64,000 bases of DNA from Callorhinchus milii. Taxonomy: Eukaryota. Under the pieces are notes generated by a model that was not told the DNA's origin, searched no databases, and worked only from the letters and a program-made list of their open reading frames with translations. The stretch covers positions 5,332,001 through 5,396,000 of the forward strand of contig NW_024704759.1 of NCBI RefSeq assembly GCF_018977255.1. Reading direction: 5' to 3'. This document shows positions 6,966 through 61,269 of this stretch, piece by piece; the stretch's first letter is position 1, and each line of letters begins with the position of its first letter. The position numbers and the translations under genes were made by a program.

Positions 6966-7152
6966 GAAAAAAAACAATAATAAATTGGTCATTTTCAGTC
7001 CACGACTGTTTGTGGGACACTGCCTTACGCAACTGGCTGCCGCGTTTCGCCCACAAATATACAGTCAATTCACTTTACGGTCTATTCTGTGAAGCGCTTT
7101 GAGATGTCGAGAAGACGTGAAAAGCTCCATATCAAATGCGAGGATTATTATT
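6966..7152 (+). mobile_element. 5'-truncated tRNA-derived SINE
   Basis: Matches the 3' half of the full copy at 32870-33190. Confidence 0.75.
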
Positions 7153-7346: not shown

Positions 7347-20060
<12,714 letters not shown>

Positions 20061-20800: not shown

Positions 20801-21619
20801 GAACAGAGGAGTGCAATATTGTTGGGAGTTGCTTGCCATCCTTCAGATAGGCGTTAAATCAAGTCTGCCTGTTCAGGTGGACATTAAAGAAACCATTACA
20901 CTTGTTCAAAATGAGAAGTTACCCTGTGTTCTCGCCAACAATCCCTCAAAAAATGTTATAATCAGTCTTCCAGCTGAGACAGTGAGGGTATTCCCTCCCT
21001 CCCCTCCCCTCCCTCCCAATCTCTTTCTCACTTATTCTCTCTCTATACTTTGCTGTTATGGGATATGGGGGTGTGGGGTGTTTGGGGGGGAAATCACTCT
21101 GTCTCCTTCTTCCTCTGTCTCTCTCACTTTCTCTGACTCGGTGGGAGATGTCTCAATGCCAGTCTCAAGCTGCCACTGAGACATACTCACATGTAGTGTT
21201 GTGCGCCCAATCTCAGTGCCTCGTGTGGAGCTCTCTCAAGCTCAGTACCTTGCCAGTGCGGGACATGGTACTCTCTGCAGCTCTGGGAGTCTCTCGACTC
21301 GAGTGTTCTTTCGGGCTCTCACGCTGACTCAGGCTCAGTTATACCAGTCTCAGCTTCTCTGTGTCTCTGTCTCTATCAACGTGTGGGGTCACTGTGTCCC
21401 TTTGAATTCCTTGCTGGTGCGTGACATGGCTCCGAGTACGAATCTTTGTGTGGCTCAGTGTTTCAGGCACTCTCAGTGTGAGGGTCTCTTTCTGCACTCC
21501 TTTCCCTCGCGCTCTGTGAAGCCTCTCTGCGTGACAGTGGGTAAACGTCTCTCCGTCTCTCACTCACTGTGAGACAGTGCAGGAATTGTCTCAACGTGAA
21601 CCTCCCAATGTGAGTGTCT

Positions 21620-22495
21620 CAATGTGTGGTTCCCTGTGTGTGAGTGTGTGTGAGTGTCTCCCTGTGTGTGTGTGAGTGTGTGTGAGTGTCTCCTTCTGTG
21701 TGTGTGTGTCTCTCTCAGTGAGTGTCTCCCTGTGTGTGTGTGTGTGTCTGTGTGTGTCTCTCAGTGAGTGTCTCCCTGTGTGTGTGTGTGTGTGTGTCTG
21801 TGTGTGTCTCTCAGTGAGTGTCTCCCTCTGTGTCTCAGTATCTCAGTGAGTGTCTCCCTCTGTGTGTGTGTGTGTGTGTGTGTGTCTCAGTGAGTGTCTC
21901 CCTCTGTGTGTCTCAGTATCTCAGTGAGTGTCTCCCTCTGTGTGTGTGTGTATGTCTCAGTGAGTGTCTCCCTCTGTGTGTCTCAGTATCTCAGTGAGTG
22001 TCTCCCTCTGTGTGTGTGTCTCAGTATCTCAGTGAGTATCTCCCTCTGTGTGTCTCAGTATCTCAGTGAGTGTCTCCCTCTGTGTGTGTGTGTGTCTCTC
22101 AGTGAGTGTCTCCCTGTGTGTGTGTGTGTGTGTGTCTGTGTGTGTCTCTCAGTGAGTGTCTCCCTCTGTGTGTCTCAGTATCTCAGTGAGTGTCTCCCTC
22201 TGTGTGTGTGTGTGTGTGTCTCAGTGAGTGTCTCCCTCTGTGTGTCTCAGTATCTCAGTGAGTGTCTCCCTCTGTGTGTCTCAGTATCTCAGTGAGTGTC
22301 TCCCTCTGTGTGTCTCAGTATCTCAGTGAGTGTCTCCCTCTGTGTGTCTCAGTATCTCAGTGAGTGTCTCCCTCTGTGTGTCTCAGTATCTCAGTGAGTG
22401 TCTCCCTCTGTGTGTCTCAGTATCTCAGTGAGTGTCTCCCTCTGTGTGTCTCAGTATCTCAGTGAGTGTCTCCCTCTGTGTGTGTGTGTCTCTCG
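21620..22495. repeat. Minisatellite with 34-bp unit TCTCAGTATCTCAGTGAGTGTCTCCCTCTGTGTG and variable (TG)n
   Basis: Near-perfect units at ~22230-22480, more variable to the left. Confidence 0.9.
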
Positions 22496-22499
22496 GTGA

Positions 22500-23300
22500 A
22501 TGTCCCTCAGTGTGCGATCGCCGACGTAAAGACGTTCCCTCTGTCGCTCTCTCTGGACTCGGGTCGGCGCCGCTCTCTCGTTGCCGTGGAAACCGCGGCC
22601 CCTTTCCCTCCCCTCCCCCCCCCCCCCCCGGCACCCCGCACGCACACGCGCGCGCGCGCGCACACACGCACACGTCAGTTCCGGGCGCCCGCCCGAAGCG
22701 GTGACGTCGCGCGCCTTCCGGCCGCCCGTGCCCACGCGGCTGTCCGGGCCACGCGCTGAAGCTCGGGCCGCCTCGCGTCGTGTGTATGGGGCAGCAGAGA
22801 GCCCCTCCTGTTGCTTTCCCTCCGGGAGAACGCGCCCCGACAGCCCTCCCACTCCCCCAAAACAAGTAACAAGTCGCCCACAAACCACACACACACACAC
22901 ACACGTTCACCCACTTGATTTATTATAGAGACGACACGTGACACCCTCCCCCACCCCCCACCCCCTCCCCTGTGCTGCTGCCCTGAGGCGTGTCCCGGTG
23001 GCGGTTGGCCGGCGCCGCCATGGCCTCTCCCGCTTTGCCGGCGGAGCTGCGGGCGCTGGAGCAGCACCGGGCTGCGCTCCTGCGGGCCGCGCCCCAACGC
23101 CCCGCCGCCGCCCCGACCCCGGCGCGGGCTGAGGCTTTTGCCAGGTACCGCCGTCGCCGCCGCCGCCGCCTCGTGGGCTCCGTTGTCGGCGCCCCCCCCC
23201 CCCAGCGCTCGCGTTTCGCGTGGCTCGGTGTTTGCGCCTGGCGGCCGACGGGGAGGCCGAGGGCGGCTCAAACCGAGAGGGCGAGCGCGGAGCCGGCACC
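22500..23300. promoter_or_regulatory. CpG island / probable bidirectional promoter between TTLL9 and SPO11
   Basis: Very CpG-rich. RFX X-box GTTGCCGTGGAAAC 22580-22593; TGACGTC 22702-22708; ETS CTTCCGG 22715-22721; E-box CACGTG 22935-22940; Kozak GCCGCCATGG at the SPO11 ATG. Confidence 0.7.
23020..23144 (+). CDS. SPO11: SPO11 exon 1
   Basis: Perfect Kozak ATG; [21 protein letters not shown]; CAG|GTACCG donor. Confidence 0.85.
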
Positions 23301-26300
23301 TTTTTTTTAATGGCTTGTTTTTGTGAAGCCAAAGGCATCAAAGAGGAAGGTCTTGAGGTGGACCTGAAGGCACACCGATGGCCGGGGGAGTTGTGGGTTG
23401 CACTGCAGACCTGTCCCAGCCTGACCAAAGGGGGTGGGCCGAGGATTGAGGTATGAGCAGGTCGGAGAGGTAGGGTGGTGCTCGTGTGTGATGGGATTTG
23501 TATGTGAAGGTGAGGATCTTGAAATCAATGATTTGGGAGACGCAGTCAGTGGAGCATGGCCTGGATTGTGCTGATGGCCGTGCAGAGTTTGATATGGGTG
23601 AGGACGTGAACAGTGGAGTTTTGGATAAGCTGGACCTTGTTGATGGTGGAATTGCAGAGTCCAGTGAGGGGTGCATTGGAGAAGTCGAGGCGGGACGTGA
23701 CAAAGACTGGATGAGGGTTTCAGTGGGGGTTGGATTGAGATAGAGTCGAAGGCGGGCAATTTAGCAGAGGTGGATAAAAGCAGTCTGGTCAGGGACTATA
23801 TGTGGGTGAGGAAGGACAGCTGGTGGAACCGGACACCAAGGTTGTTTACAGGTTCAGTGAGATTGAGAGAGAGGCCAGAGAGAAGAGACAGAGTTTAAAC
23901 CCTGAGGTACATCGCAGGTGATCATGCAAGGGCGGTAGGAGAAACCTTTGGAAGAGAAAGTGGAAGCAATGGGTCAGGAAGGAATTAAACTATGAGATTG
24001 CACTCCTAATGGAAGTGGATGAGGGAGGAGAGACAATTGAGGAGGATGGATAATCATAACGCACTATTCAAATGCAAGTTCTTGAATATAATCAATCATT
24101 TTCTGATTTTTCTGGTCATTTTTACCAACCATTGTCAATACAATGTATTTTATTAAAGTTCTTGCCTTAGATTTCTTTTTGTCTAAGTAATAAATTTATA
24201 TCACCTTCCTTGTTTCAGTTCTAATGTTCTTGTAGCAATCGAAAGTGTCATCAAAGAGGTACTGACATATTTTGCGAAGGGAGAAGCAGCAGTTATCACG
24301 TTGGACAAAAGATCATCATGGGAAAATATTTGGTATATTCTAATATTTATGTGATTCTTCAAGTGTTATAAATTGCATATGATTATTTAGTATGCTTATT
24401 GATAGTTGGAATGTAATTACAAAGTTGGAGCTCATTTAAAGGGTCCAGAAGATGATACAAGTTGTGGAACTTGAAAATTTTCACACACCTTTCTGTCTCA
24501 CACTTCCTCTAGAACTTTTGCACTCACACAAACCTCATTTGGTAACTTCTGCAGGATTTAACCTACATACCCTGTGAGAGATTTTCATATTGGGTTGGAA
24601 TTTACTAAAGGAAATTCAGAATCCCTAATGGAGATTGCTGCTGCTTTATGGTAACCAGGTCGGTAGGGTTGAAGGGGATCGCAGAGATTGGGGTGAGATG
24701 TAGAGAGATTTCAAAATGAGAACTGGGATCTTGAAATTGATCATCTGGGAGATAAGACAGTTAAACCAAGCTAGGATGGGGATGACAAGCTTGTAGAGTT
24801 CACTGCAGGAGAAGATTCAGGCTGCAGAGTTCTGGATAGTCTACTGCCTATGTAAGGAAGAGCAGGGGAATCTGGCACACAGCGCATTGGCATAGTGGAA
24901 CCTGGATGTGATAAAGCATGGATGGATCTAGCCCGAGGGAAAAGGCAGTGGCAATGTTTCAGAGGTGAGAAAAAGCTGAATAGGCAAGAGCAAAATAACT
25001 CGCCAGCTTGTTCTGTTGACATGATGTATGTGGAACTTTGAAACTACAAGAAAAAAAGGACATTCATTGTAAGATATACTAATTATTCTATTGTTGCATG
25101 TTAACAGGTTTGATGACACAGTTGGCTTGCAGATGGTATTTGATTGCACTGTAACCAAAGTGAAGTGTGAGAATCTCAAATCAATGCAACGATTTGGTAT
25201 GTATTGTATCAGATTTTCTCATTGATGTGTAGCATGTCATGCATGCATTTGATTTCATCACATCAAAATGCTTCACATTCTGGAAGGAGTAAGGAGTGGG
25301 GAATAAATACTGACACAGAATGGTTGGGCCAAATGGACTGTTTCTGTGCTGTACAGTCTACGTAAGTGTGATTCTCGGCAAGCAAACATAATATCTGATT
25401 TGTACCAGCGCAGTTCTACAAAAAGGAAGAAGTAAACAAATACAATAGCAGTGATATTGCCTGAATTGTGTCTGTGAAACCTTGATTGTGCAAATTGGCT
25501 GCATTTACCTTCAAATAGTTAGTCACTATGTTTGACAGTAAATATCCATGAACATCTCTAACAAAGTGACCTCAAAATTGAGAGAAAGTGCTCTGTGAAG
25601 CTACTATTTAGTGAACAGTGACATTTAGCACCCATTGTGGGGCTGTCAGAGGATAAGACACTAAAAACAAAATTATTGTCTTGTCTACCAATTGCCAAAA
25701 CTGGATCACCATACCCTGCAGAGGAGAGCTCTCTATTAAAAAATCTTGTAGGAAAACTACCTCGTCAGAGAAAGTAGAGTTAGTACTAGGATCAAGGAAC
25801 TAAGACAATAAAGACATAACTAAAATCCTCATAGGAAAACTCTTTAAGAGAAACAGCTGATACTAAAGTAAGATAGAACTATGGAGGAAGGACATTCCGA
25901 GCAAATTCTTGTAAGTGCCCAGGAGTGGGCGGTGTTATCTTCTACATTTGTCCTCTGCTCCCTCCCTCCCTCTCTCCCTCAGTCCTTCCTTTCTTCTCTC
26001 CCTCCTACCTCACTCACTTACAACGCTTTTGCTGTGCTTTGCTATTTTTTCTCCTCCTGCATCCCCCCACCCCATTGCCACCCCCCCCTCCCACACGCCC
26101 TCCCCAACAGCTCGGGTGCTCAGGTCCAGTGTGAAGCAATTTGAGAATGTGAAACGTGCTATAGAAGTGTAAATTGAATTGTATAGTAATAAATGTTTTT
26201 CTTCCAGCTTTAATACTTAAGATCCTATCGATGATCTACAAGCTGGTGCAGAGCAACACGTATGCAACTAAGAGGTGACAGAACATTAAATCAGTTACTG

Positions 26301-29300
26301 TGATCTGAGTGTATGTATGACTGTAGAATACCTTTTGGTATGGAGGACATGGAGGAACATGTATTAGCCTGGCTCATCAATGTGTGCCAGAACGGCTTTG
26401 TTTGCTCGTGCGTGGCGTGGGGAGTGTTGGGATCACGAGTGGAAAATCAGCTTTGTCTGCTGGTGAGTGAACCACGATAGAAAGACAAGCTGCGTGACAC
26501 TTATTTGCTCTGTGCCCAGCCTAAACTGAGCTATTCAAATTAACATTTTTGTATACTGTACAATTCAAATTAACATTTTTAGTATTTTAAACATAGCTAC
26601 ATGTCTAGTATTTTCAATAAAGTGAAAAACTGTAGCTTAGAGAATGAGAAAATCTGATATAATACATACCAGCAAAATGCGTCTCTCAATAGCACCAATC
26701 AACCCTCCGCAATTCCCTGCAAAATTTATCACACCTCCGCCACAATTTCCTGTACTCCCAGGGGTCAAATGACCCACAATTTTTGGTAAATATTTCCGCA
26801 ATTTTCTATTGGCCCAACTTATAACTTATCACTACATGCTGAAATATAATTGGGGCACTACAATAATGCATACCTTTTAGGTATAAGTTAATTGAAGTTT
26901 TTTAACTTAGTTAGCTGGGAGTAGTTTGAACTGAAAAGTATTCTTCCCCAACTTACCTCTCCTTCAGGAATATTTGATTGTGAGAGAAAATCGGATCCCA
27001 GCATTTCACTATCTGGTGGATTACATTGCTTCAGTTTGGAGTATGTGTCTCTATCAAGAAACTGGGTGCATTTCATAGTTTAATTAATAAGACTGTCAAA
27101 AATATAGTCTACTTTTCTTACTCGGATGCTCTTTATTGCAGAGACTTGTTTTACAGTGACACACAAGTGTTTGGCTCACAGAGCGTCCTGGATGCTATTA
27201 TCAATGATATATCGTGCCTGCTAAAAGTGCCACGCAGGTATCTTCATATTGTAAGTACTTACTGCGCTCACATTTCTTTTCCTGCATAACATATGGATAT
27301 ACATTAAAAATATTTTAAAACACGTAGTTTAGGAACTCGTTTCAGTGAAATAACAAAAAAGTTTCAAAAGAACTGGAGTATTACATTCGTGACTTTTTAA
27401 GCATTTAATGTGATAATTAACCCAGCAATAATTTAAGCGCCTTGGGATGTCTCCCGACATGAAAGGCACTTTACAAATGTAATTTTATATTGTATCAAGA
27501 GCAAAGGGAGTTGAATCATTGAATTTGTGATCAGGACTCTGAATCCATGCTTCTCATTTGCTTAAAAAGAAATCTTGGCAGTGAACAAAGTGGTTTTAGA
27601 TTTAAAATTATTGCCAGCTGTGGGTGCAGATTTAACCCTGTTTCACCAGATAGTGTTTTAAAATTAAAAAGATTAAAAACTAAAATAAAAAGTTAAAACT
27701 CCTAAGCGGCCTGAATAAAGGCTTTTCTAATCCTTGCTACAATAGATAGGTTTTAAGGTCATATTTTTATTGCATTTTCTGTTCTTATAATTATCACCAA
27801 CAATTTATCACACCAGCAAGTGCATTTTCTCCTCATCTGTTAAAAAAAGATACAATTTTGATCCTATGCTTCTGCAAGATTGGATTTTTTTTAATGCAAA
27901 CCTTGAATTTCTCAATAATTGCTAATACATACATTTAGGTGAAGACAGAACAGTTGATTGGGTTGTGAAACGTTTGTAGTGTGAATGAATAGGTAGACGT
28001 GAGCTTCATGATTTGGACCATATGACAGTAAGCCAAGATATAAATTTATTTATGTATTGGGATATACAATTAACTTTTTCACTGAAATGACCAACACATG
28101 GAAATTAGTGTATTGCTCTCATTTCCATATTATTTTAGAAATCCTAAAAGTAATTGTTGGAATTCTGAAAATAAAATAAATTCTTAAAATCTCACAACAG
28201 GGCAATCAGCATCAAAAAAGGTTAGCATTTCAGACATGGTCATTCATTAGAAATGATACTGATTGATTGACAATCTAGATTTTCAGCATTTTGGATGTAT
28301 TAGTGTTCTGTTTTATGAAAAATAATCCTGGCATTTGATGTAGCGCTTTTTCACATCTTCGAGACGTCTCAAAGTGCTTTGCAGAATATACTGTAAAGTG
28401 AATTGACGGTATATTTGTGGGCGAAACACAGCAGCCATTTGCACACAGCAGTGTTCCACAAACAGTCGTCGATTGAGTGACCAAATTATTATTGTTTTTT
28501 TTTTCTTGAGGGATTATTATCAGGCGTGTGGAGTAAGGAAACTTGCCCAAGGTTTTGCCCTGCCGGAAATTGAACACATGTCTCGCTTGCGAAGTGAATG
28601 CTCTGACTACTGAGCTACAGGACTCAATTTTTCTTTGTATTCTTTGTTTCAGTTATCTACCGCTAGAGGTTACATTGCTGGCGATCTATATTACACTGAA
28701 GAAGATGGGACTAGGGTGAACTGTTCCTGCAACTCTACTGTAAGTGGCCAAACAATCATATAAAGGGGAATAATAATAACAACAATTAGTGCATTAGCAT
28801 TTTGAATACTTTTAGCAAAGAGCATTACTTCTAAACTTTGTCTCCTTCAAAAATAAATCACCAGAGCAAACAACTCTGACCCTATTATGACATAATAATA
28901 TTTGCATTTGATATAGCGCCATATCAGGTCATTCAAGAAAAAAAAATTCTTCTCACCTCCCCTCTTTCTTTTAACAACACTTTCAAATCAGTGCCCTCGG
29001 GATCCTGACCCATTTGTCAGTGGAAATAGTTTCTCCTCGTTCACCCTATCGAATAACTTCAGAACTTTGAAAACTTCTATTAAGTCTCCTCTTAATTTTC
29101 TCTGCTCGAAGAAAATCCCAGCTTCTCTAGCCTCTCCTGATAACGGAAATCCTTCATTCCTGCTTCCACCCTCAACTCCAGGACCACTGCTGTCCTGACA
29201 GACTGCCTGTCAGACATCAAGTCCTGGATGAGGGCAAATTTCCTACAGTTGAATGTGAACAAGACTGAGGCCCTCCTGATTGGCTCACGCCAGCGCCTCT

Positions 29301-32300
29301 GCACCTCAGGCTCTGGCAGCATCAACCTCCATGGTTGCACACTTTAATTCACCAGCCAGTCAGGAACCAAGGTGTCTTGTTCGACTCTCAACTGTCTTTT
29401 CTTCCCCACATCCAAGCCATGACTCGCTCTGCCTTCCCTCACCTCCGTAACATTGCCCGACTCCGCCACTACGTCACTTCAGGCCGCTGAAACTCTTGTT
29501 CATGCCTTCATCACATCCAGACTCAACTATGCAAACCCCCTGCTTGTCGGCCTTCCCAACTCCTCCCTCCACAGGCTGCAGATAATCCCCCATTCTCGCC
29601 TGACTCCATTGGCTCCCTATCCTTCAGAGGATCTAGTTCAAGATCCTGGTCCTCACCTACAAAGCCCTCCACGGCCTCGCCCCACCCTAACTCTGCGACC
29701 TCCTAACCCCCTACTAACCCACCCGCTCAGCCAGCTCTGGCCTGCTCCACGTCCCCCGACCCACCCGCCCCACCATTGGCGAGAGAGCCTTCAGCCACTC
29801 TGCCCCCAACCTCTGGAATTCCATCCCCCAATCACTCCACCTCGCCCCCTCCTCAGCTCCTTCGAGTCCCGTCTCAACACCCTCCTCTTCAACCATGCCA
29901 TCGGCCACCCATCTTCCCTTCCCCTCCCTTCTGCCCCCCCCCCGACCCCTGCTCGAGTCTGAAATGTTGTACATTGTCCAGAGACTTGGGACACCCTCCT
30001 GACATGAAAGGAACTATACAAATGTAATCTTCTTGTTGTTGAGAATGCTCATTTGCCAGGAATTCTTAATTGTTGTAAAGAAAAATATCTGTAGACTGAC
30101 TCCAAAAAGTTAATACAGGGTGACCAAAACGTTGTGATGCCATTACAATGTCTAATAAGTCTTAAATAAATGATATATATATTTTTAGATAATAGGGTAA
30201 TTATCACAATTTTTTGGTCACCCTGTACTTGTAATACCTTAAGAATTATGATATTGAAAAATATGAAGTACTGAATTTTAGTTCAATAAAAATTATGACT
30301 TTTATATTCCTAGGCCATTCTCGTACCATCCAATGTTGACGGAGTAAAATGTATCCTTTATACAGTATATGTATATTTAGCGTTTCGTGTAGCGTTTCAT
30401 TTATGTGGAAAGAATTATTTCATGAGTAAAATGTGCTTGGATTTCTCATTTTATGATTAGCACCTCAATAGCTGTATAGAACAATTAAAAGATAATCACA
30501 AATACATACATTATTCAAATATCTTAAGGTTCACTGAGGTATATGGTGCATTGGGGTGGGAAGGTGGTGAGGTCTCACCTCATTCCAAAGGCAAGATCAT
30601 TTTTTATATTTTGGGTAAAAACGTACAAATTTATTTCTGTTGCAGGTAATTTTGTGTGCAGTTATTGCATTAAATCAAATAGTATTAATAATTTTATGCT
30701 TTGTCTCTTGCCTGGATACGTGTTTCATATCATCCCTGCGTCAACTGACAGGGTCTCCCTCATCTCCAAACCTGAGTCAGTCTATCCCCTACTCCTCTGG
30801 CTCTTTCTCCTCCTTCAATCGCCTCACCCTTTACCATCCTTTCTTTCTCTCCAGAAGACCATAAGACATAGGAGCCATTCGGCCCCTCGAGCCTGCCCTC
30901 TGATCTTCTAACCTAATTCCATTTACCCGCACTATCCCCATATCCCTCTATCTTTTAGAAATCTCCTTGAAAATCTTAGTAATCTCAATTGCATGTAGAC
31001 ATTTGCAGCACATGGGACCATGCCAGAAGGGACAAGAAGTGTCTGTGCAACTGCTAACCATTTTCTTTACCATAACCTGCAAGATTTAAATTCTACTGCT
31101 AAATTTGTTCTCATTGTTGAGAAAGATGCCACCTTCCAGAGGCTGTTGGATGATGCGTTTTGCACAAAATTGTCCCCATGTATAATTATAACTGTAAGTG
31201 CCAGAAAATATATGTCATACTGCTGCTGAGAGAGATGGTTCTGATGCAATTAATCAATAGACGTAGACTTTTGGTGCACATTTTAAATTGGCAGAAGGTT
31301 AACCAAATTTCACATGAGGTTTACATTTCAAACTGTTACGCTGATCTCTATTGTTTACAAGCACTTTTTTGTAACCTCTTTTATATGCCAGCTGCTCATT
31401 GCTTCATTTCTTGACTTGCTGAATCCTCGATCTGCTTGGAGTATAATTATATGCACGCCACAGATCTTTTATACCTTTACAATATGAATTAAGTCAAGAC
31501 TGCTTTCCATTATCAATTAATGTTGACATCGGAATGGAATACTGATACATCCAAGAGGAAATATTGTGGCTACATTCCAATACCTAAATCCTATATTCCT
31601 GTGGCAAATACTTGTCTTTATTTGACAACAGCCCACAGTGCCATGATTGAAATCAATATTAAGAATGACCTAGGGAACTGATCATTGTTGAAGCACTCCA
31701 GAGGGAAGCTTTACTATGCATCTAGCTTATGGGATACATGACTTGGAAGAGCTTGATGCTGATACTGGATTATTCATTTTCATATACAGTTTATCAGAAT
31801 TGTTTTGTGTTTTTTTTTAAATTGCCTATGTTCACTGTGGCTTTTAGGGGAAAGGAGTACCAGATCTAAACACCAGACTGATGGTCCGAAAGCTGTGGGA
31901 CACACTCCATATTCCTGTTTTTGCCCTTGTGGATGCTGACCCATATGGTAATTGCTATTATACATAAATACTATCTGTTTTTTAAAAAAAACTTGTATTT
32001 TTATAGAGCCTAATCATGTTAAAAAGCCTCAAAGGTGACACAGTTAATACAGTCAAACTCTGTTATACCACAAATCAGTATATGTGCAGCAGTGAGGAGG
32101 GGAGAATTTGTTTATATCTTTGTGAATCTGTGTTACACCACATGTTAGGTACAGTGAACTGAGCTGGTTGGCTTTCTGTGCATGGTGTGCAGGTGCAGAG
32201 GCCTGCAAACATCCTAGTGACCACTGGAAATGCTCGCAAAAGCATTGGACACAATCGGAGTGAGTCGATCAGTTAAGACTAGAAGCTGGAAATGACATCA

Positions 32301-35300
32301 GCAGTGACCTAACAACCTGGAACCACTGACCAGTGTCCAATTTTATAATGTAGCCCTATAACAAGGGTCTGATTTCATGGACCCAGACACCAGTGCTATA
32401 AAGGAGTCTGATTACATTAATACAAACTAGCATGTTTTGGAGCTAGTTCAAATTGGATGTTTAAATTTTTTCTACAAAGCTAGATTACGCAAAGGGGACT
32501 AATACTACAGAAGAAAGCCTAGCATGTTCGCATCTGTTTTAGGAAATACTTTATATTCTTTGTAATAAATCATTTAATTATATTTTGGTTGTGTTTAGGT
32601 ATTGAAATCATGTGCATTTACAAGTATGGCTCAATGGTAAGTGTTTATTAAACCAACATATGTGATTGCTGTTTATATTTCAACATACTTCCCTGAATAA
32701 AGAAGATACAGTGAAATTTGTTTAATTAAATATCAGATAATTGAACAGTTTGGTTTATTGAATGGAATTTAGAAGTCCCAAACCATTTGTTCGCCTAATT
32801 TCGGGGGTGGGGGTGGGCGGGCGAGCGAGCATCTTAGAGCACTTAAAAAGGGTGATAGATATACAATATGGAGTCCTGTAGCTCAGTGGTTAGAGCACTT
32901 GCTTTGCAAGTGAGAGACCTGAGTTCAATTCCAGGCAGGGCGAAACCTTGGGCAAGTTTCCTTACTCCACACAGAGCCTAATAATAATCCCTCCAAAACC
33001 AAAAAAAAACAATATTAAAAAATTGGTCATTTTCAATCTACGACTGTTTGTGGGACATTGCTGTGCGCAATTGGCTGCCGCGTTCACCCACAAATATACA
33101 GTCAATTCACTTTACAGTTTATTCTGTGAAGCGCTTTGGGACGTCCTCCCGACGTGAAAAGCGCTATATCAAATGCAAGGATTATTATTAATATCTCTTT
33201 TGGTATTTATGTATATAGAGGAATAGTGAGGAATTAAGATTTAAATATCTCTCACGACCTAATAAAAAATTGGCAGAACAGGCTTGATCGTTACATATCT
33301 TACTCCTGTTCCTGTGTTCCTAATACGTAAGGATATTCCAAATTAACTTGGGTTTTGGTGTTACATGTACTAAGAAACCGTTAATTCTATTTTTTGTTTT
33401 TCACCTATTAGTCTATGTCTTTTGAAGCCCACAATCTCACTGTTCCAATTATCCGCTGGCTGGGCTTACTTCCATCTGATATTCAAAGGTCAGTAGCTTC
33501 AATAGCTCTGTTAAGCCAAACACAAAATACTGCAGATACTGGAAATCTGAAAACAAAATCCGAACGCTGAGTGTCCCCAGCGACTTCTGTTTTCGTTCTC
33601 TGTTAAGCTGGTTTGCTACAGTACTCATATTTCTACTGAGAATGTTTTTTGTGTGCTATTGGGGTTAAAATTTGCAACCTAAATTAGCTAATTACAACTG
33701 TGTTACAACTCCTGTTGGTTTCCTGATAACTCACCAGAGAGCAGCTTCAACATGCCAGAAGATAGACACATTTCTGGTTGTGATTTGGAGTTGCTATTTA
33801 GTGCTGTACGCTTTAACCCTCAAAGGCATACATTGATTCTGATTTAAGGAGTGCTGGAATGAATTTATCATGTTTCAGAAATTCAGGGCCGAATGGCCTT
33901 CTTCTGTGCTGTGATTGTCTGTGGTTCCATATTGCAGATTCACTGACAGCATTCATGTTACATTATTGTAGAAGGGCACAGTTTTGTGTCAATTACATAG
34001 AATTACATACACTGTACAGCACTGAAATAGGCCTTTTGGCCCAAGTAGTCCTTGATGTTTTTTGTATTCCAATGAGTCTGTGCAAAGAAGTTCCTCCTGA
34101 ATTCTCTTTTATTGATCTTCTAGTCGCTATCTAATATTTACATTTGACAACAACAAATTACAAGAAATAATATCATACTTTATTACTCAATGTAATGGAT
34201 ACAGAACTAGCTGGCACACAGAAATGAGAGAGTGATGAACGGTTGTTTTTCTGACTGGAAGGAAGTGTGCATTGGTGTACCCCAGGGTTTGGTATTGGGA
34301 CCACTGCTGTTTTTGATCTATATAAATGACTTGGACTTGGGTATAGGGAGTACAATTTCCAAGTTTGCAGATGTTACTAAGCTAGGAAAAGTAGTAACAG
34401 TGAGGAGGATAGTAGCAGACTGCAAGAGGACATAGACAGACTGGTAAAATGGACATGTGGCAGATGAAGTTTAATGTGGAGAAATGCAAAATGATGCATT
34501 TTGGGAGGAAGAATGAGGAGAGGCAATATAAGCTGATGGTACAGTCTTAAAGGGGGTGAAGGAACAGAGAGACCTGAGGGTTCATATAAGTAAATCTTTG
34601 AAGGTGGCAGGACAGGGAGATAAAGCTGTTAAAAAAGCACACGGGATACAAGGCTTTATAAACAGGGGCATAGAATACAAAGTCAGGAAGTTATGATGAA
34701 CCTTTGTAAAACACTGGTTAGGCCTCAGCAAGAGACTGTGTTCAGTTCTGGGCACCATACTTTAGGAAGGATGTCAAGGCATTGGAGAGGGTGCAAAGGA
34801 GATTTACCAGGATGGTACCAGGAATGAGGGACTTCAGTTATAAGCAGATGCTAGAAAAGCTGGGATTATTCTCCTTGGAGCAGAGATGGTTAAAGGGAGA
34901 TTTAATAGTGTTCAAAATTAATAGAATGTTTAAAATTACAAGGGGGTTCGTTGGGGTGAAGAAGGAGAAACTATTTCCACTGGCGGGTGGATCGGTAATA
35001 ATAATAATAATAATAATCCTTGCATTTGATATAGCGCTTTTCACGTCGGGAGGACGTCCCAAAGCGCTTCACAGAATAGACTGTAAAGTGAATTGACTGT
35101 ATATTTGTGGGCGAACGCGGCAGCCAATTGCGCACAGCAATGTCCCGTGGACACTGATTTAAAATAGTTGTTAAAAGAAACAGAGGGGAGGTGAGAGAAA
35201 TTTTTTCACACAACGAGATCTGGAATACATTGCCTGAAAGGGTGGTTGAAGCCGATTCCATAACTACTTTTAAGGGAGACATAGATAATTATCTGGGGAT

Positions 35301-36576
35301 GACAAGTTTGCAGGACTATGGGGAGAGAGCGGGGGAGTGGGATTGATTTGGACAGTTCTTTTCAGAGAGCCGGCGCAGACACAATGGGCCGAATGGTCTC
35401 CTGTGCTGTATGATTCTATGAAAAGGCTATCTTCAATCTATGCTGTGTGCATTTGGCTGATGTGTTTCGCCCACAAAATTATAATATATTCTGTGAAGCA
35501 CTTTGAGACGTCTCGAAGATGTGATAAGGCACTTTATCAAATGCAAGGATTATTATTATATTATTGACTGAATTGGATTTTATACAAATGATACAGTTTG
35601 CCTGTATCTCGGACTGCGCATAAGTCACATTAAATGTTATGGTCCCGACTGATACGACTTGTGTGAGTTTTGCTGCACATTAAATTGTTTGTACTTCTTC
35701 TAATATTAAAATAAGAGCCAGGCAAATAACTTATTTTTTGTAACCATGTTGTCTTCAGACTAAATGTGCCTAAAGAGGTGCTGATTCCGCTAAATAAAAG
35801 AGACATAAGCAAGCTGACCATTCTGCAGAAAAGGCCCTTCATTGACTGGCAACCTCAATGGAAAAATGAAGTATGAGACTTTTTTTTGTTAATCAGTAAT
35901 ATATTTTCTAATCTTTGTGAAATGGATAACTTTCTATGTTGCACTAAGAAATTGAATACAATTTACACTAATATAGCATATACGACCTTTCTTGTCGGGT
36001 GGGGCGGGGGGCTCCAAAAACTACTGACAAATCTGGCTGGGCACAGGAGCTGAGGGAATGAGGAGAAAGATAATCGAACGCATAGTCAAAGAGATACATC
36101 AGGTTGCAGAAGTAGAGTAGGACGAGTGCATGGAGGGATTTAATGTGAGATTCAGGATCTTGAACGTGATCTGTTGAGGGATGGGGAGCCAATGGTACTG
36201 AGCAAGGATGAGGGGTGATAGGCTTGTGGAGCCTTGGACAGGAGAGGATGTGAGCTGCAGAGTTCTGGTTAGTCTGCAGGCTGTGCAGAGAAGAGCTGAG
36301 GAGTCCAGCAAGCAGTGTTGGTGTAATGCATGAAATGCACCAGTTCTTGTTTTAGTGACTGAGCGAGAAACTCAAGTAAATATATTGCACCACTTGATAC
36401 AAAATCAATACCATTGATACAATACCAATACTATTGCAATAACTTCTTTTTTTTAGATGGAAATAATGGAGAAGTGTAAAATGAAGGCTGAAATACAGGC
36501 CCTGGCATCAATTTCTTCTGACTATCTTACAAGAGTTTACTTACCAAACAAAATCAAGTTTGGAGGTTGGATATAA
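23020..36576 (+). CDS. SPO11: Meiotic recombination protein SPO11 (13 exons, 394 aa)
   Basis: Exons 23020-23144, 24219-24332, 25108-25196, 26208-26274, 27142-27250, 28653-28739, 30314-30350, 31084-31193, 31848-31947, 32599-32636, 33412-33488, 35759-35870 and 36457-36576 join in frame (1185 nt). Motifs TKRDLFY, VEKDATF, GKGVPD, DADPYG and KAEIQAL; ends FGGWI*. Confidence 0.97.
23325..23850 (-). mobile_element. L2 LINE fragment in SPO11 intron 1
   Basis: [26 protein letters not shown]. Confidence 0.7.
24219..24332 (+). CDS. SPO11: SPO11 exon 2
   Basis: 114 nt, [11 protein letters not shown]...RSSWENI. Confidence 0.92.
25108..25196 (+). CDS. SPO11: SPO11 exon 3
   Basis: 89 nt, FDDTVGLQM. Confidence 0.93.
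26208..26274 (+). CDS. SPO11: SPO11 exon 4
   Basis: 67 nt, [21 protein letters not shown]. Confidence 0.95.
27142..27250 (+). CDS. SPO11: SPO11 exon 5 (catalytic Tyr)
   Basis: 109 nt, [13 protein letters not shown]... Confidence 0.95.
28320..28625 (-). mobile_element. Full-length tRNA-derived SINE
   Basis: Homologous along its length to 32870-33190. Confidence 0.85.
28653..28739 (+). CDS. SPO11: SPO11 exon 6
   Basis: 87 nt, [24 protein letters not shown]. Confidence 0.94.
28935..29160 (-). mobile_element. CR1 3' fragment
   Basis: [15 protein letters not shown]; homologous to 11330-11550. Confidence 0.75.
29161..30040 (+). mobile_element. L2 LINE 3' fragment
   Basis: [24 protein letters not shown]; L2 tail ...AAATGTAAT..TTGTTG. 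Confidence 0.85.
30116..30225. mobile_element. Tc1/mariner-type MITE (110 bp)
   Basis: TA|CAGGGTGACCAAAACGTTGTGAT ... ATCACAATTTTTTGGTCACCCTG|TA; 23-bp TIRs (21/23 match) with TA TSD. Confidence 0.85.
30314..30350 (+). CDS. SPO11: SPO11 exon 7
   Basis: 37 nt, [12 protein letters not shown]; followed by U12 donor GTATCCTT. Confidence 0.92.
31084..31193 (+). CDS. SPO11: SPO11 exon 8 (Toprim)
   Basis: 110 nt, [19 protein letters not shown]. Confidence 0.94.
31848..31947 (+). CDS. SPO11: SPO11 exon 9
   Basis: 100 nt, [10 protein letters not shown]...VDADPY. Confidence 0.95.
32050..32414. mobile_element. Decayed Tigger/pogo-like MITE
   Basis: TA|CAGTCAAACTCTGTTATA left end and degenerate TATAAAGGAGTCTGATTA right end. 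Confidence 0.45.
32599..32636 (+). CDS. SPO11: SPO11 exon 10
   Basis: 38 nt, [12 protein letters not shown]. Confidence 0.94.
32870..33190 (+). mobile_element. Full-length young tRNA-derived SINE
   Basis: A box TAGCTCAGTGG, B box GAGTTCAATTCC, Deu-like body and (ATT)n tail; possible AATAT TSD. Confidence 0.9.
33412..33488 (+). CDS. SPO11: SPO11 exon 11
   Basis: 77 nt, [25 protein letters not shown]. Confidence 0.95.
33517..33597 (+). mobile_element. Short insertion flanked by an 11-bp TSD
   Basis: CTCTGTTAAGC at 33506-33516 and 33598-33608; related sequence at ~5199-5262. Confidence 0.7.
34215..35420 (+). mobile_element. CR1 LINE 3' portion (RT C-terminus) with nested SINE at 34996-35146
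   Basis: [25 protein letters not shown]; [13 protein letters not shown]; tail TATGATTCTATG. Confidence 0.9.
35759..35870 (+). CDS. SPO11: SPO11 exon 12
   Basis: 112 nt, [15 protein letters not shown]...WKNE. Confidence 0.93.
36457..36576 (+). CDS. SPO11: SPO11 exon 13 (stop)
   Basis: [16 protein letters not shown]...KFGGWI*. Confidence 0.95.
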   Translation: MEIMEKCKMKAEIQALASISSDYLTRVYLPNKIKFGGWI

Positions 36577-37940
36577 GCACAACAACTTACCGTTATATAA
36601 CGACTTCAACACATGGTAGCGTCTCATAGCACTCACTCGAGAAAAGGACTCAAGTAACTGATTCCTATTCCATTTGGAGGGATGTCTGGCTCAGCTCGTC
36701 GCACTCTCGCCTTTGAGCAGAAAGATGTTGGAATTTGGATTCACATTTATTGTTGAGATATTGCTTGAGACATTAAACCGAGGTCCTTTCTGTCTGTTTA
36801 GGTGGATATTAAAGATTCCATGGCACAACCTGAAAAGAGAAGGAAGTTTCTCTGGCGTCGTATCCCCTAAAAATCCCCCAAATAAAATTGGGCATTTATG
36901 TCATGGCTGTTTGTGACATGTTGCTGTGCACTCGCCCACAAAATACACAGTGACTCCACTTCACAGAAAATTCCATGAAGCGTCGCTCCAAGGCCAAAGG
37001 CCAAACAACGTTGGACACAACCTTATTGTCCTTGGTGACAGACACTATAGTTAGTCTGTCGTGTCACTTTACATGTTTTGTTGGTTGATTGCTAGTTTGC
37101 GTTATAAGCTTTTACAGTGCAGCAGGTGTTTTTTCAGTCAGCATATTCCAGATTTGGGGGATTCTGGTTGTGCCGCTCTCATATTGTTGATGGTTGACAT
37201 GCTACAAGGCAAGATTTGTGTCCCACGCTTAATGTGTTAAACAACAAAACCAAATTACATTTGTATAGCACCTTTCACATCTCCCGGTGTCATGGAAGTC
37301 TCACTTGTGTTAACAAATGAACATTAACAGCGGATGAAGTTTATGGTGAATAAAATATTAATTTTCACAATTTGTTATTTATTTATTTATTGGATAACGC
37401 TAACAAGTGTCAAGGGAAGGTTATTCAATATGATTAAATGGTCACTTTTTCACAAAATCCCTGACGCCTAATTTCGGTGATTTCACCGTTTCGCAATTTT
37501 ACCGGAAATCTCAGGGATTTCAGGTTTAGAATAATTTCAGGGACTTTGCGAAATCCCTGGTTCCGCAACTTCACTGCGGCGGCCGCGCGATTCCGATAAC
37601 ACGCGTTGCAACCGCTGTATTGAGTGAAATGACACGATTGGCCGTTGATTTCAGTTTACGCTCATTTGTGTTTCCTCAACTGTGCCGATCGGGGGTCGGG
37701 GGGGTGGGGGGGGGGAAAAAACAACACCGCAGCACGACAACAACCACACAGGGGGCCGCCCCCTCTCCCGCCGCGTTTCACCCGCAAGGCACGCGGTCGG
37801 CCAACGCGGCGCACTCCGTGAAGCGCTTCGAGACGTCGCGACGACGCGACGCCCACTCTCGGACGACTGGCGGATTCACGGTTATCGCAAACCCGTTCCG
37901 CTTCGAGGAAGGCGGCCGTTAAGGTTCACCGGTTCACTGA

Positions 37941-38272
37941 TAATAAATAATAATAATAATAATAATCCTTGCATTTGATATAGCGCTTTTCACGTCGGGA
38001 GGACGTCCCAAAGCGCTTCGCAGAACACACTGTAAAGTGAATTGACTGTATATTTGTGGGCGAACGCGGCAGCCAATTGCGCACAGCAATGTCCCACAAA
38101 CAGTCGTGGATTGAAAATGACCAATTTATTATTGTTTTTGGTTTTGGAGGGATTATTATTAGGCTCTGTGTGGAGTAAGGAAACTTGCCCAAGGTTTCAC
38201 CCTCTGCCTGGAATTGAACTCAGGTCTCTCGCTTGTAAAGCGAGTGCTCTAACCACTGAGCTACAGGACTCC
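37941..38272 (-). mobile_element. Full-length young tRNA-derived SINE just upstream of the RAE1 promoter
   Basis: Near-identical to 17866-18185. Confidence 0.9.
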
Positions 38273-38339
38273 TTAAATGATAAACATTTAAGTAACTTTG
38301 AATCGAACGGTGATTTTTTTTCCCCTTTCCCCTCACTTT

Positions 38340-38845
38340 TAAGATTGCACCGCAGCGATTGGGCGGTGACACGCGCTCAGCGGAACCGAACGGCGGCGGC
38401 GGCGGCGACCGGGGGGACGTGTTTGCGGGGGGGACACACGTGTGTGCGGCGGGGAACCGGGGGACGGGGACGGACGTCTCCAAGTCGGAAGTGCGTCATC
38501 CGCGTCACACCCCCCCGCTGGCTTCCTGCGTTCATTCACGGCCGCCGGGACGGTGCGAGGAGAGGCCGCGGGGTGAGGGGAGCCGCCCGGCCACAGGTGG
38601 GTAGTACCGGCGGCGGCCTCCACGCCGGGGTTTATTGGCTTCATGTGGTAATGCCCGAGCGGCCTCACCCCCGGTCAGGCCCCCGGTTGGCTCCCCCCGG
38701 GGGTAGGGGCGGTGGCAACTCTTGAAGCGCCTGTAACGTGTGGTGACCGTTTGTCACTGAACGCAGCAGTCGGTTTTGGTCAGGAATGAAGCCACTGCAA
38801 CATCGTTGAAGCCAGTGATCGGTTCTATCCGCGGGGGACTGTTGG
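38340..38845 (+). promoter_or_regulatory. CpG-island promoter and probable non-coding exon 1 of RAE1
   Basis: CpG-rich. ATTGG plus GGGCGG ~38358-38366; ETS CGGAAGT 38486-38492; candidate donor CAG|GTGGGT after 38596. Confidence 0.65.
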
Positions 38846-39169
38846 NNNNNNNNNNNNNNNNNNNNNNNNNNNNNNNNNNNNNNNNNNNNNNNNNNNNNNN
38901 NNNNNNNNNNNNNNNNNNNNNNNNNNNNNNNNNNNNNNNNNNNNNNNNNNNNNNNNNNNNNNNNNNNNNNNNNNNNNNNNNNNNNNNNNNNNNNNNNNNN
39001 NNNNNNNNNNNNNNNNNNNNNNNNNNNNNNNNNNNNNNNNNNNNNNNNNNNNNNNNNNNNNNNNNNNNNNNNNNNNNNNNNNNNNNNNNNNNNNNNNNNN
39101 NNNNNNNNNNNNNNNNNNNNNNNNNNNNNNNNNNNNNNNNNNNNNNNNNNNNNNNNNNNNNNNNNNNNN
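38846..39169. other. Assembly gap (N run)
   Basis: N bases. Confidence 1.
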
Positions 39170-40370
39170 TTTCCTCTCTTTTTTTTTTGGAATGTAGCTG
39201 TGAATCTTTTCACATCCGTCCGTCCGCCTTCCCGTAACGGACAGACTTGGTTTGACATCTCCCACCAGGGATGGCTCCTCTTGGCAACACCGCAGCGCAT
39301 CACCCCCCCCCCCCCCCCCAGCGCAGATCCGCAACGCGGGCGGGAATGTGGTCACCGAGACACAAGCAGTCAGCAGTGCCCCGGAGAGCTGAGGATCCGC
39401 CTGGTACAACAAGTTACATTTATGTGAGCGCCTTTCACGCCGGAAGGACGCCCCGAGGCGCTGGACTGCTATGGGTCAGCGCCCGAGCTGGGGGTTCAAA
39501 TCAAGAGGGGTGGGAGGGTGGCCAAAGGCACAGTCGAAGAGGAAGGTCTCGAGGTTGGAAGCTTGAAGGCTCAGGAACGATACAAAATTACGTCAGGAGA
39601 ACGTTCCAAAGCACTGGACAGTCAGTGATTTGGGCCCGAGCTGGGGTTCGGGTTCGGGGAGGGTCCCCCTATGACGGACCAAGATTGTCGTAGAGGATTT
39701 ATTGCTTCTGAACCCAAGTGTGGTACCTTACCATTCTTGTCCCTGCCCCTGGAAGGATATCTGTGTCAAATGCAAGGATTATATTAGTTTTTGTTCCACC
39801 ATCAATGGTGCTGGTTGTTACACGTGCCTATCGTGCTTTTACTGAAACACTGAAACATTTCCAATTCTCTTTCTTTGCCCTTTATATTGGGGATTGAACC
39901 TTTTTTTATAAATGTGTTTGTACAAGATAGAAATGAATATCTTACAATACAATTACATTTGTATAACGCCTTTCACGTTGGGAGGACGACCCAAGATTCG
40001 GAACTTAATCCGAATTCGAGCCCTAAGTCGGGAGTTTAAGCCTTGGCCCAGGCTGACATTACAATAAAGTGGGGTACGTATGCGTTGCACTGTTGGAGGT
40101 GAAGTCCTTTGGTTGTGACATTAAACAGATCCTGGGTGGTCCTAGTTGGACAAGCAGGGAGCTTACCGGATAGTGCCCTCAATGGCAACCTACTGCTCCA
40201 GCAGCATCCCAAAGAACACTGTGGGGGTAAACTGTATGTAATTTTAATGTACCCGTTATTTATCCAGTGTAGCTGTTTTGTATGGAGAAAAACACTTGAT
40301 TGTGGCTGTAAAGAGCTTGTTTCTGGTTGTTACAATACACTGACATAAATCATTTCATAGCAGAGCCAAA

Positions 40371-40454
40371 ATGAGCATATTTGGAACAAGTGGAGGGTTC
40401 GGAGCAGGGAGCATGTTTGGAGGCACGACTGCAGACAACCACAATCCTATGAAG
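40371..40454 (+). CDS. RAE1: RAE1 first coding exon
   Basis: [28 protein letters not shown]; TAGCAG tandem acceptor upstream. Confidence 0.93.
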
Positions 40455-49400: not shown

Positions 49401-51212
49401 TGTTCTGGTTGTCTCAAGAACCTCCCGATTTAGTCCTGCGCTCCTGCCTTTCCCCCTCTTATATTTCTTCTCTTAATTTTTTTAAATTCTCTATTAAAAG
49501 TGAATATGGATTCTACCTCAACCACTGTTTGGTGTAGGACATTCCATGTCTTAACTCTGACCTGTGTTTCCAACGTGTAGTCTTAATTGCTCTGTTGACT
49601 GAGCTAATCTAACAGCACAGCCTGCAACTCAAGCCTCGCACCTTCCCAGCCTGATTCAGTCACTTCTGATAAATCCTGAGCTCTCACAGGATACCCTCAA
49701 ATGGAAATTGAGCCATGATTCCCAATATCATTCCTTGATTTCTAGCGCCGTTTACATTTTGGAGCAGAGGATTTTAGTCTGTTTTTTGGTGTCACTGTCT
49801 GCCTTCGGGCATTACTGACAAGTTTTGTTGCCTGGAATGTCTGTTTGGCACTATGCAAGAAGGTAATGGTTGTAATGTCAGTGGAAGTTTCCTGAGAAAT
49901 GAGAACCGTCAGAGTATTGATCCAGTACCTTGGGACATCCTCACGATGTGTAAGGCGCTGTGCAAACGTAATTTGTTGTTGTTGAAATATTGTATTCTAC
50001 CAGTTAGGTGTGGTTAAAAGAATTAGCTGCACTTTTGGATACTTTCACATTGTCTTGTCACTAGTGACTTCAAATGAAGTCTAAGAAGTGGGGAAAAAAA
50101 GAAATTTCATCCTTGGTTTTGAGAGTGACTATGAGAATTTGTTTCTGTTATGATACAAACACTTGTTGAATTGTACAGTTAAAATCATGGAGTCGTGTAG
50201 CATATTGGTTAGAGCACTCGCCTCACAAGTGAGAGGATCTGGCTTCAATTCCCGGCCATGGCAAAATGTTAGGCAAGTTTTCTTACTCCAAACGCCTCTG
50301 TTTACCTAGCAGTAATAGGAACCCGGTTGTTAGTCGATTGGCGGACATCGTTCCGGGGGTAATAATCCCTTTAAAAAGATGTGGTCACTCAGTCCACGAA
50401 TGTTTGTTGGACACTGCTTTGTGCAATTGGCTGCTGCGTTTTGACCACAAAATATGCAGTTAATCCATTTTACAGTACGTGTTGTGAAGCGCTTTGAGAC
50501 GTGTCAAAGGCATAAGGCGCATTTTGATATATTAAATGCAAGGATTGTTATTATGAAATCTGTATATCTCACGACTTACGACAGTTGAGCTTTCTCATTT
50601 TACTCTCAACTGGAATGAAACATGGTTGCCATCCATTTTCTGCAAAATAGCGTAATCCCTTTAATTATTCTCTCCCGTCAGGTTAACGGGATTGCATTCC
50701 ACCCAATCCATGGCACACTCGCCACAGTGGGATCCGACGGCAGGTTCAGCTTTTGGGATAAAGACGCCCGCACCAAGCTGAAAACCTCTGAGCAGCTGGA
50801 CCAGCAGATCACTGCCTGTGGCTTCAACAACAACGGCAACATCTTCGCCTACTCCTCCAGTTACGACTGGTCAAAGGTAGGGAGGAGTTTGCTCTGGGTG
50901 TGGCTGCCTGGATCAATGGTGACCATCAAGGCCAGACGAAGGGATGTGGGGGCCCTTTGTACTATGCAACAATACCTTTTTGTGGATGACAGTCACGTTG
51001 ATATTTAATCTGACTATGTAGATGTCTCAACGACATGATAAGGCACTATATAAAATGCAAGGGTTATTATGATAAGGTTAAAATTAGTTTCTCAAAAAAT
51101 TCCTGCATCCGTTTGTTTTCAGGGTCATGAATACTTTAATCCTCAGAAAAAGAATTACATATTTCTGCGTAACGCAGCAGAGGAGCTGAAACCCAGGAAC
51201 AAGAAAGGGTAA
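40371..51212 (+). CDS. RAE1: mRNA export factor RAE1 (WD40; 11 coding exons, 368 aa)
   Basis: Exons 40371-40454, 41124-41228, 41327-41419, 42385-42471, 46479-46565, 47333-47404, 48252-48359, 48855-48961, 49050-49128, 50682-50876 and 51123-51212 join in frame (1107 nt). Near-identical to vertebrate RAE1 ([42 protein letters not shown]). Confidence 0.97.
40650..40985 (+). mobile_element. L2 3' fragment
   Basis: [18 protein letters not shown]...LKTLL and tail. Confidence 0.75.
41124..41228 (+). CDS. RAE1: RAE1 exon ([10 protein letters not shown]...GSWAND)
   Basis: 105 nt, AG/GTGAGT. Confidence 0.95.
41327..41419 (+). CDS. RAE1: RAE1 exon (VRCWEIQ...VCWSD)
   Basis: 93 nt. Confidence 0.95.
42385..42471 (+). 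CDS. RAE1: RAE1 exon ([19 protein letters not shown]...IAQ)
   Basis: 87 nt. Confidence 0.95.
42917..45790 (-). mobile_element. Long, internally deleted CR1 LINE (ORF1 esterase, endonuclease and RT 3' remnants)
   Basis: [13 protein letters not shown] and VCCLPGA (ORF1); [27 protein letters not shown] (APE endonuclease); [10 protein letters not shown]; CR1 tail. Confidence 0.85.
46479..46565 (+). CDS. RAE1: RAE1 exon ([10 protein letters not shown]...GSWDKTLK)
   Basis: 87 nt. Confidence 0.95.
47333..47404 (+). CDS. RAE1: RAE1 exon ([10 protein letters not shown]...YCADV)
   Basis: 72 nt. Confidence 0.95.
48252..48359 (+). CDS. RAE1: RAE1 exon ([13 protein letters not shown]...SPLKHQ)
   Basis: 108 nt. 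Confidence 0.95.
48855..48961 (+). CDS. RAE1: RAE1 exon ([10 protein letters not shown]...YINPPN)
   Basis: 107 nt. Confidence 0.95.
49050..49128 (+). CDS. RAE1: RAE1 exon ([14 protein letters not shown]...DIYA)
   Basis: 79 nt. Confidence 0.95.
50189..50553 (+). mobile_element. Full-length older SINE subfamily with a longer central region
   Basis: Same head and tail as the 32870 copy plus an extra internal segment (CTCTGTTTACCTAGCAGTAAT...). Confidence 0.8.
50682..50876 (+). CDS. RAE1: RAE1 exon (VNGIAFHP...YDWSK)
   Basis: 195 nt. Confidence 0.96.
51123..51212 (+). CDS. RAE1: RAE1 last coding exon ([10 protein letters not shown]...KPRNKKG*)
   Basis: Stop at 51210-51212, or the equivalent stop after splicing 51208 to 52068. 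Confidence 0.92.
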
Positions 51213-60746: not shown

Positions 60747-61269
60747 CTTTTACATGAAAATAACTGAATATTTTATTGGAGTTCATTGTGCTGATGAAGG
60801 TTGGAAATTACAGTAACTGTTGAATATCTGTCAGTAGGTGGTGGTAAAGTGCTAGAGACAGCAGAGTGAGAACTTTATAGAGGTTTGTGAGTGGGTGAGG
60901 AGCACCTTTTGGGTGTAGATGGGGGGAGTATATCTGTCAGGTGTGGATGGGAGAACTTGTTGGGTGTTGGGGGGGGGGGGGATTGCCTAATGGGCGTTTA
61001 AGTTGATGGTACTTTGCGAATGGTCCTTTGTTGTTCGTGTGGAGAAGCGCTCTGGGACGCTACCCCACGTGAAGAGCGCTATATAAATTCCTGCTGTCGT
61101 TGTTGTGTGGTGCTGATAGCAATGATCTCAAACCCGGAGAGAGCAGAGAGCGTGAGACGTGGGCCTGGGAGAATCCAGAGAGTTGGAAAAGATGGAGTCA
61201 CGAACACCGGCTGCTGGTGAGACACAAAACAATAAGATTCTTTGCGATGGAAAAACTTAAACGTCGATG

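Follow-up and report, generated by a model that had tools for sequence, protein, structure and literature searches.

The window analyzed here is a 64-kb stretch of DNA from a holocephalan, the elephant shark Callorhinchus milii, and all comparisons among copies of SINEs and other repeats were confined to it. It carries, in order, a PPP1R3D-like gene, SPO11, RAE1 and an RBM38-like gene. SPO11 was identified by one exon (not the last) matching TopoVI-A (E 8.6e-05), and RAE1 by the exon at 50682-50876, which matches mRNA export factor (E 1.6e-37). The single-exon PPP1R3D-like ORF at 2236-4020 shares ~40% identity with PPP1R3D-like proteins of sharks and skates, and its 90% cluster includes two C. 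milii proteins, one of which departs from it at 1 of 594 residues; its product of 594 aa has a long low-complexity N-terminal extension, its shark and skate relatives being 454-866 aa long and the amphibian and coelacanth matches ~330-340 aa. SPO11 (23020-36570) has an island of its own at 22301-23540, with a long TG-rich tandem array ahead of it (~21600-22480).

The subject of this analysis is an old SINE fragment, referred to below as the fossil, which lies between SPO11 and RAE1. It begins ~490 bases beyond the end of a run X2 contig (RNA by guess only) that carries the last SPO11 exon. The next donor-like site, at 38595, lies ~750 bases downstream of the fossil, a distance that was ~410 bases before a young SINE was inserted. 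The features of the interval are as follows.

36457..37280, plus strand: SPO11 last coding exon and probable 3' UTR (from translation, with a stop near 36570; the run X2 contig spans 36457-37280)
37491..38870, no strand: CpG island region (blocks 37491-38050 and 38161-38870, split inside the young SINE; the island resumes beyond an N gap and continues to ~39740)
37770..37849, plus strand: the fossil, an old SINE 3' body fragment from the region common to CmiSINE and SacSINE1-CM (GC 0.71, 18 CpG, shifted from A/T to G/C)
37850..37878, no strand: CpG-rich DNA outside the fossil, with no SINE homology demonstrable by shuffle test
37941..38272, minus strand: young full-length tRNA-headed SINE that separates the fossil from the putative promoter core within the island (96% identity to the copy at 17855-18185)
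38330..38601, plus strand: proposed promoter and non-coding first exon of RAE1 (donor-like site at 38595; GC 0.72; CpG o/e 1.12)
38731..38843, minus strand: the second fossil, a SINE body piece more decayed than the first, inside the island in probable RAE1 intron 1 (weak alignment)
39406..39558, minus strand: L2-type 3' tail copy with a weak shift (11:9)
40371..40454, plus strand: RAE1 first coding exon (putative ATG at 40371)

The island at 38330-38600 is taken as the putative RAE1 promoter from its composition and position; run X2 gave no contig over 38310-38849, a blank that does not count as evidence. In a run X1 contig this island carries insertions of 21 letters (at 38423) and 9 letters (at 38455) that resemble local duplications (one contig, depth 5.45), and the length of this putative promoter may therefore differ between individuals. 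Both X1 and X2 depart from the window sequence at 36699-36776, within the SPO11 3' region; these several substitutions and small indels, some of them common to the two runs, are either alleles or assembly errors. Repeats within 37280-37940 were short and unremarkable; a low-copy repeat at 37400-37560, with short internal inverted repeats (37448-37464 and 37537-37553), is possibly a decayed non-autonomous DNA element. A structured or known ncRNA was rejected as a candidate, Rfam having matched only the tRNA head of the young SINE and one weak hit far below the gathering score.

Identity and extent of the SINE fragment

The initial annotation had placed SINE 3' body sequence across 37770..37878. 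By sequence comparison, homology to the SINE 3' body of C. milii holds for 37770-37849 and is not demonstrable for the rest of the proposed segment: over 37850-37885 nothing rose above shuffled sequence, 207-1449 of 2000 shuffles reaching the observed score. Upstream extension to 37730 was likewise rejected, there being nothing above shuffles in 37730-37769. Against the copy at 7039-7120 the fossil gave a blastn E of 4e-5, and nhmmer with an HMM built from 12 copies gave an E of 1.3e-3 on its 3' half (37815-37849). Its alignment score was equalled by 0 of 1000 dinucleotide shuffles with each of four reference copies, under both ordinary and transition-tolerant scoring, and the GC-shifted 5' half (37770-37814) was significant by itself (0, 1, 2 and 7 of 2000 shuffles for the four references). 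A separate MAFFT alignment gave the same register. When 182 control windows were drawn from other GC-rich parts of the window, their best scores were 27-43 as against 72-86 for the fossil; for two of the references the top-scoring control was the second fossil at 38731-38843.

The CmiSINEs (SINE2-1_CM, SINE2B-1_CM) and SacSINE1-CM, as described in PMC5499810, have a tRNA head, an L2-type tail and a common 3' region of 160 bases, which is the anatomy of the SINEs in this window. The fossil has neither the tRNA-derived head nor a CORE or Deu body. Since it lies in the 3' part common to the CmiSINEs and SacSINE1-CM, and has no head or diagnostic body, its family cannot be named. Its raw divergence of 23 in 77 columns is one-directional and exceeds the family means reported in the same source, 12.6-22.4%. 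The main text of PMC5499810 contains none of the terms GC content, CpG and gene conversion.

Direction of change and contribution of CpG sites

Changes were polarized against the majority of 15 older copies in the window, which are of mixed subfamilies and stand in for a curated consensus. Over 77 columns the fossil showed 20 weak-to-strong (W>S) changes, 18 of them transitions, with 2 strong-to-weak (S>W) and 1 neutral; the visual estimate made earlier, of roughly 20 against about one in reverse, was thus close. When each of these 15 was left out in turn and scored likewise, the pooled count was 57:99 (Fisher p=1e-6 against 20:2). Per site, the W>S rate was 0.50 in the fossil and 0.12 in the older copies, the S>W rate was 0.05 and 0.24 (2/37 versus 99/410 in other copies, p=0.004), and GC* was ~0.90 and 0.32. 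Against six young copies the count was 20:5, a figure inflated by subfamily differences. All six carry C at 37772, so the change scored there is probably an artefact of the decay of an ancestral CpG in the reference.

A strict set was restricted to columns in which most of the young copies and 80% or more of the old ones agree in class, with 27 of 80 positions dropped as ambiguous. In this set 16/33 W sites and 1/20 S sites had changed in the fossil, as against 30/395 and 39/225 in the others (p=1e-4), and none of the other 15 copies had more than 5 W>S changes. The W>S changes are spread over the whole 80 bases, with about half of the A/T sites changed, and are strand-symmetric, at 9 A>G and 9 T>C. 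This equality on one strand excludes editing of a single-stranded RNA, and editing of a SINE transcript was accordingly rejected as a source of the pattern. The one-way shift is real and well beyond chance, at one locus that was chosen because it is extreme.

Exclusion of CpG sites had been set beforehand as a check, and under it the bias was weakened but kept, at 6:1 and 9:1 by two rules. By the first, following the convention of PMC11161765, every site that is CpG in either sequence was dropped; this left 6:1 in the fossil and 39:58 in the others (p=0.025, or p=0.06 against an even split), on small numbers. As that rule preferentially discards changed sites, sites were re-classed by the context of the reference. 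Outside CpG-prone reference contexts 9/23 W sites and 1/20 S sites had changed in the fossil, as against 24/282 and 34/220 in the others (p=0.005), again on small numbers. The non-CpG changes noted by eye in the initial annotation are present at 37788, 37789, 37790, 37801, 37812 and 37814. A model with free age and background bias and no added bias was rejected (LRT p=1.3e-4). Given this rejection and the shift outside CpG-prone contexts, greater age or loss of methylation alone is insufficient. The added bias was estimated at B = 2.7 (CI 1.2-5.5), or 2.9 with all strict sites; the median within human hotspots reported in PMC4510005 is 2.67.

Changes that make a CpG were in excess, at 14 of 20 where random placement predicts 7.8 (P=0.002), and at 10 of 16 where it predicts 6.3 in the strict set (P=0.016). 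CpG-prone sites had changed at 7/10 and other sites at 9/23, a difference that was not significant (p=0.14). Human GC-biased gene conversion (gBGC) is, according to PMC4510005, not stronger at CpG. Plain gBGC does not predict the excess, so that selection, CpG-context repair or a source partly richer in CpG may have contributed.

Other repeats and islands in the window

Repeats beside the fossil gave a mixed picture. The second fossil (38731-38843) had 15 W>S and 6 S>W changes (p=0.0009 versus distant repeats), and 10:6 outside CpG (p=0.038), on an alignment that is weak (nhmmer E 0.011; score reached by 2, 9, 23 and 191 of 1000 shuffles). Among the matches listed to genome-wide contigs (40 of 122 rows), the low-copy repeat at 37435-37487 had 4 W>S changes and 1 S>W, and the repeats of the SPO11 3' region had 3:5. 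An L2-type tail on the far side of the island (~39410-39465) had been described as shifted in the same way as the fossil; what stood of this was a weak lean over 39406-39558 that was not significant (11:9, p=0.057; outside CpG 7:9, p=0.38). In the other 15 of the 16 such copies W>S does not exceed S>W, and this one reaches 7:1 only in the ~90 island-proximal bases, a subset picked after the fact. The young SINE, with its tRNA head matched at 38204-38266 (E 9.6e-08), had been called unshifted; with 3 W>S and 2 S>W changes as its 5 differences over 309 sites, it has too few for that call.

At the other islands, L2 pieces just inside SPO11 intron 1, beside the SPO11 island, showed ordinary AT-ward decay (3:9 and 7:16), and an L2 tail at the edge of the PPP1R3D island (1730-1821) gave 7:11 pairwise. 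A tail at 1361-1533, which we take to be a CR1-like 3' tail, lies ~300 bases from the PPP1R3D island and gave 10:3 against five other copies (p=0.003), having been chosen after the fact. A SINE/L2-type tail at 61026-61088, ~2.4 kb upstream of an RBM38-like exon, gave unpolarised pairwise counts of 13:6 and 8:5.

For a test of distance to islands, 113 tiles were scored; 31 that were tandem repeats or young copies with almost no change were set aside. Among the remainder, 22 near and 60 far tiles did not differ significantly (p=0.23), several of the "islands" being merely GC-rich L2 bodies; W>S exceeded S>W in 9 of 82. Seven promoter-near tiles pooled to 37:48 as against 283:524 (p=0.078; outside CpG p=0.28). 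No additional fossil with a strong shift emerged from a transition-tolerant scan of nine island-side regions with five reference copies. Strong at the fossil itself, the shift is patchy in its surroundings.

Interpretation and comparison with known systems

The best reading of the fossil is long-lived gBGC at an unmethylated CpG island, to which a probability of roughly 0.6 is given. Of the case made for it in the initial annotation, a local, strand-symmetric and long-acting bias toward G/C that survives exclusion of CpG sites has held, and the side evidence from the L2 tail and the young SINE carries little weight. Both halves of the pattern, raised W>S and lowered S>W, are as gBGC predicts; it is the standard cause of such bias and, fitting the estimated B of ~2.7, is likely to be the cause here.

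The proposed history is as follows. An AT-rich SINE 3' end was inserted between SPO11 and RAE1, as its homology shows. The fragment would then have come to lie in hypomethylated island chromatin, where new CpGs were not erased; this is suggested by 18 CpG in 80 bases, a density pointing to germline hypomethylation of the island, and by the methylome of the species, described in PMC5437953 as vertebrate-type and hypomethylated at TSS. Meiotic recombination has probably come back many times to the island upstream of RAE1, itself probably unmethylated, and heteroduplex repair that repeatedly favoured G/C would have raised the fixation of W>S and lowered that of S>W changes, with B ~3. The younger SINE, seen in place between the fossil and the putative promoter core, was inserted later, too recently to record the bias.

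The duration of the bias can be roughly gauged. Background W>S change amounts to ~7-8% of sites per copy, on SINE copy ages put at 100-230 Myr by a strict clock (PMC5499810). Turnover of half the A/T sites needs several times that background, and a hotspot of ~1 Myr, the lifespan given in PMC4510005, would by rough inference be insufficient even at B 15. The bias would thus have been long-lived or recurrent, which fits hotspots of the promoter type.

Selection is an unlikely explanation, though one with some evidence in its favor: the fragment would have been recruited to regulation upstream of RAE1, with G/C or CpG-making changes favored for an open island or for binding sites. The excess of CpG-creating changes, a CpG o/e of 1.78 in the fossil (~1.5 in its flanks) and the patchiness of the shift, which follows no smooth gradient, speak for such recruitment. 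Change at about half of the A/T sites across all 80 bases looks, on the contrary, like a site-blind pressure; the second fossil leans the same way from what is probably the first intron; and GC peaks at TSS are ascribed mainly to gBGC and mutation in PMC11323403 and PMC13712754.

Distinctly unlikely is an origin from an older source gene that was richer in GC and CpG, whose CpGs were kept in an unmethylated island while those of other copies decayed. That 14 of the 20 changes sit in CpG agrees with this, as do mixed states among the old copies that fit an ancestral CpG at 37772, 37790-37793 and 37817, with 27 of 80 columns ambiguous. Against it, 16 of the changed sites are A/T in at least 80% of the old copies and in most young ones, and several of these lack the TG/CA mixture expected of a decayed CpG (A in 11/11 at 37799, T in 10/10 at 37829 and 37847). 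Nine changes lie outside CpG-prone contexts. A GC-rich subfamily matching the fossil was sought among the copies in the window, and 0 of 21 have its pattern; the three described families are, according to PMC5499810, 94-97.5% alike in the 3' region.

A local bias of mutation or repair acting outside meiotic recombination, such as repair of T:G to C:G in islands or transcription-linked hypermutation, is highly doubtful. Hypermutation linked to TSS exists in humans (PMC13712754), and 18 of the 20 changes are transitions, many of them CpG-making. Such a bias does not account for the lowered S>W count (2/37), which a fixation bias predicts. Moreover, a tenfold W>S excess is not known from any mutational process in vertebrates.

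In the comparison with other sequencing runs, which covered 4 of the 24 listed, the bin that contains the fossil had summed depths of 2942 (X1), 23 (X16) and 36 (X17); these could not be separated into individual copies and were left out. Runs X16 and X17 yielded no ortholog, a blank that likewise carries no weight as evidence. An artefact of assembly or sequencing in GC-rich DNA near a gap is very improbable: the N gap lies at 38846-39169 and, among contigs listed from these 4 of 24 runs, no unique contig from another run spans 37764-38248, but on both sides of this stretch the sequence of run X1 matches the window, with 2 other letters in 425 as far as 37763 and again from 38249, and sequencing errors do not give 16-20 one-way transitions in the register of a repeat.

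With gBGC as the preferred reading, the fossil is likely a further case of a known process, from a lineage not studied before. As a single locus it is a clean example of that process, and its value is as a lead, a possible stable PRDM9-independent promoter hotspot at this site being the testable claim. A literature search, beyond whose reach most subscription papers lay, found no chondrichthyan recombination map and no holocephalan study of gBGC or repeat consensus sequences. The ~520,000 SINE insertions of C. milii with a common 3' end (PMC5499810) would let GC* be mapped against promoter islands from one genome, and so test for stable promoter-type hotspots in the deepest branch of jawed vertebrates. 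It is conceivable, though doubtful at present, that recombination in C. milii has stayed at the same CpG-island promoters for at least 100 million years, with about half a million SINE copies forming a passive genome-wide record of hotspots and CpG-favouring conversion building islands from repeats. Among the "shark" mRNAs of PMC11323403 there is a 5' GC peak, but the flanks of first exons are near genomic GC, which argues against a strong genome-wide effect.

Accounts of PRDM9 in C. milii differ: in PMC5519329 it is partial, with KRAB-SET but no SSXRD, no rapid zinc-finger evolution and no detection in RNA-seq, whereas PMC8892340 counts it as complete. The gene lies outside the window. A positive result from GC* mapping would not by itself prove PRDM9 inactive. 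Nor is the footprint in the fossil diagnostic of PRDM9 loss, since 33 of the 52 mammals surveyed are reported to have promoter-type hotspots, and in many of these Prdm9 is intact (Joseph et al., PMC11161765). The default hotspots of placentals in that study resemble the fossil in having a GC* peak at promoter-like hypomethylated DNA, scored there too as WS/W versus SW/S with CpG excluded. That study pools thousands of loci orthologous to mapped DSB hotspots, and its main text does not contain the word "shark"; here there is one locus.

Rewriting of island DNA by gBGC is also established in birds (PMC12047795) and in the dog, where the W>S frequency of CpG islands is raised 4-fold and new islands are made by gBGC (Berglund et al., PMC4350167). 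The dog work has a recombination map, a dead PRDM9 and polarity from three species, whereas here polarity comes from repeat copies, for one 80-base repeat in a species of disputed PRDM9 status. The pattern in the dog after loss of PRDM9 is like that proposed for the fossil: raised W>S change in islands, retention of CpG, and a new island arising through low methylation and gBGC.
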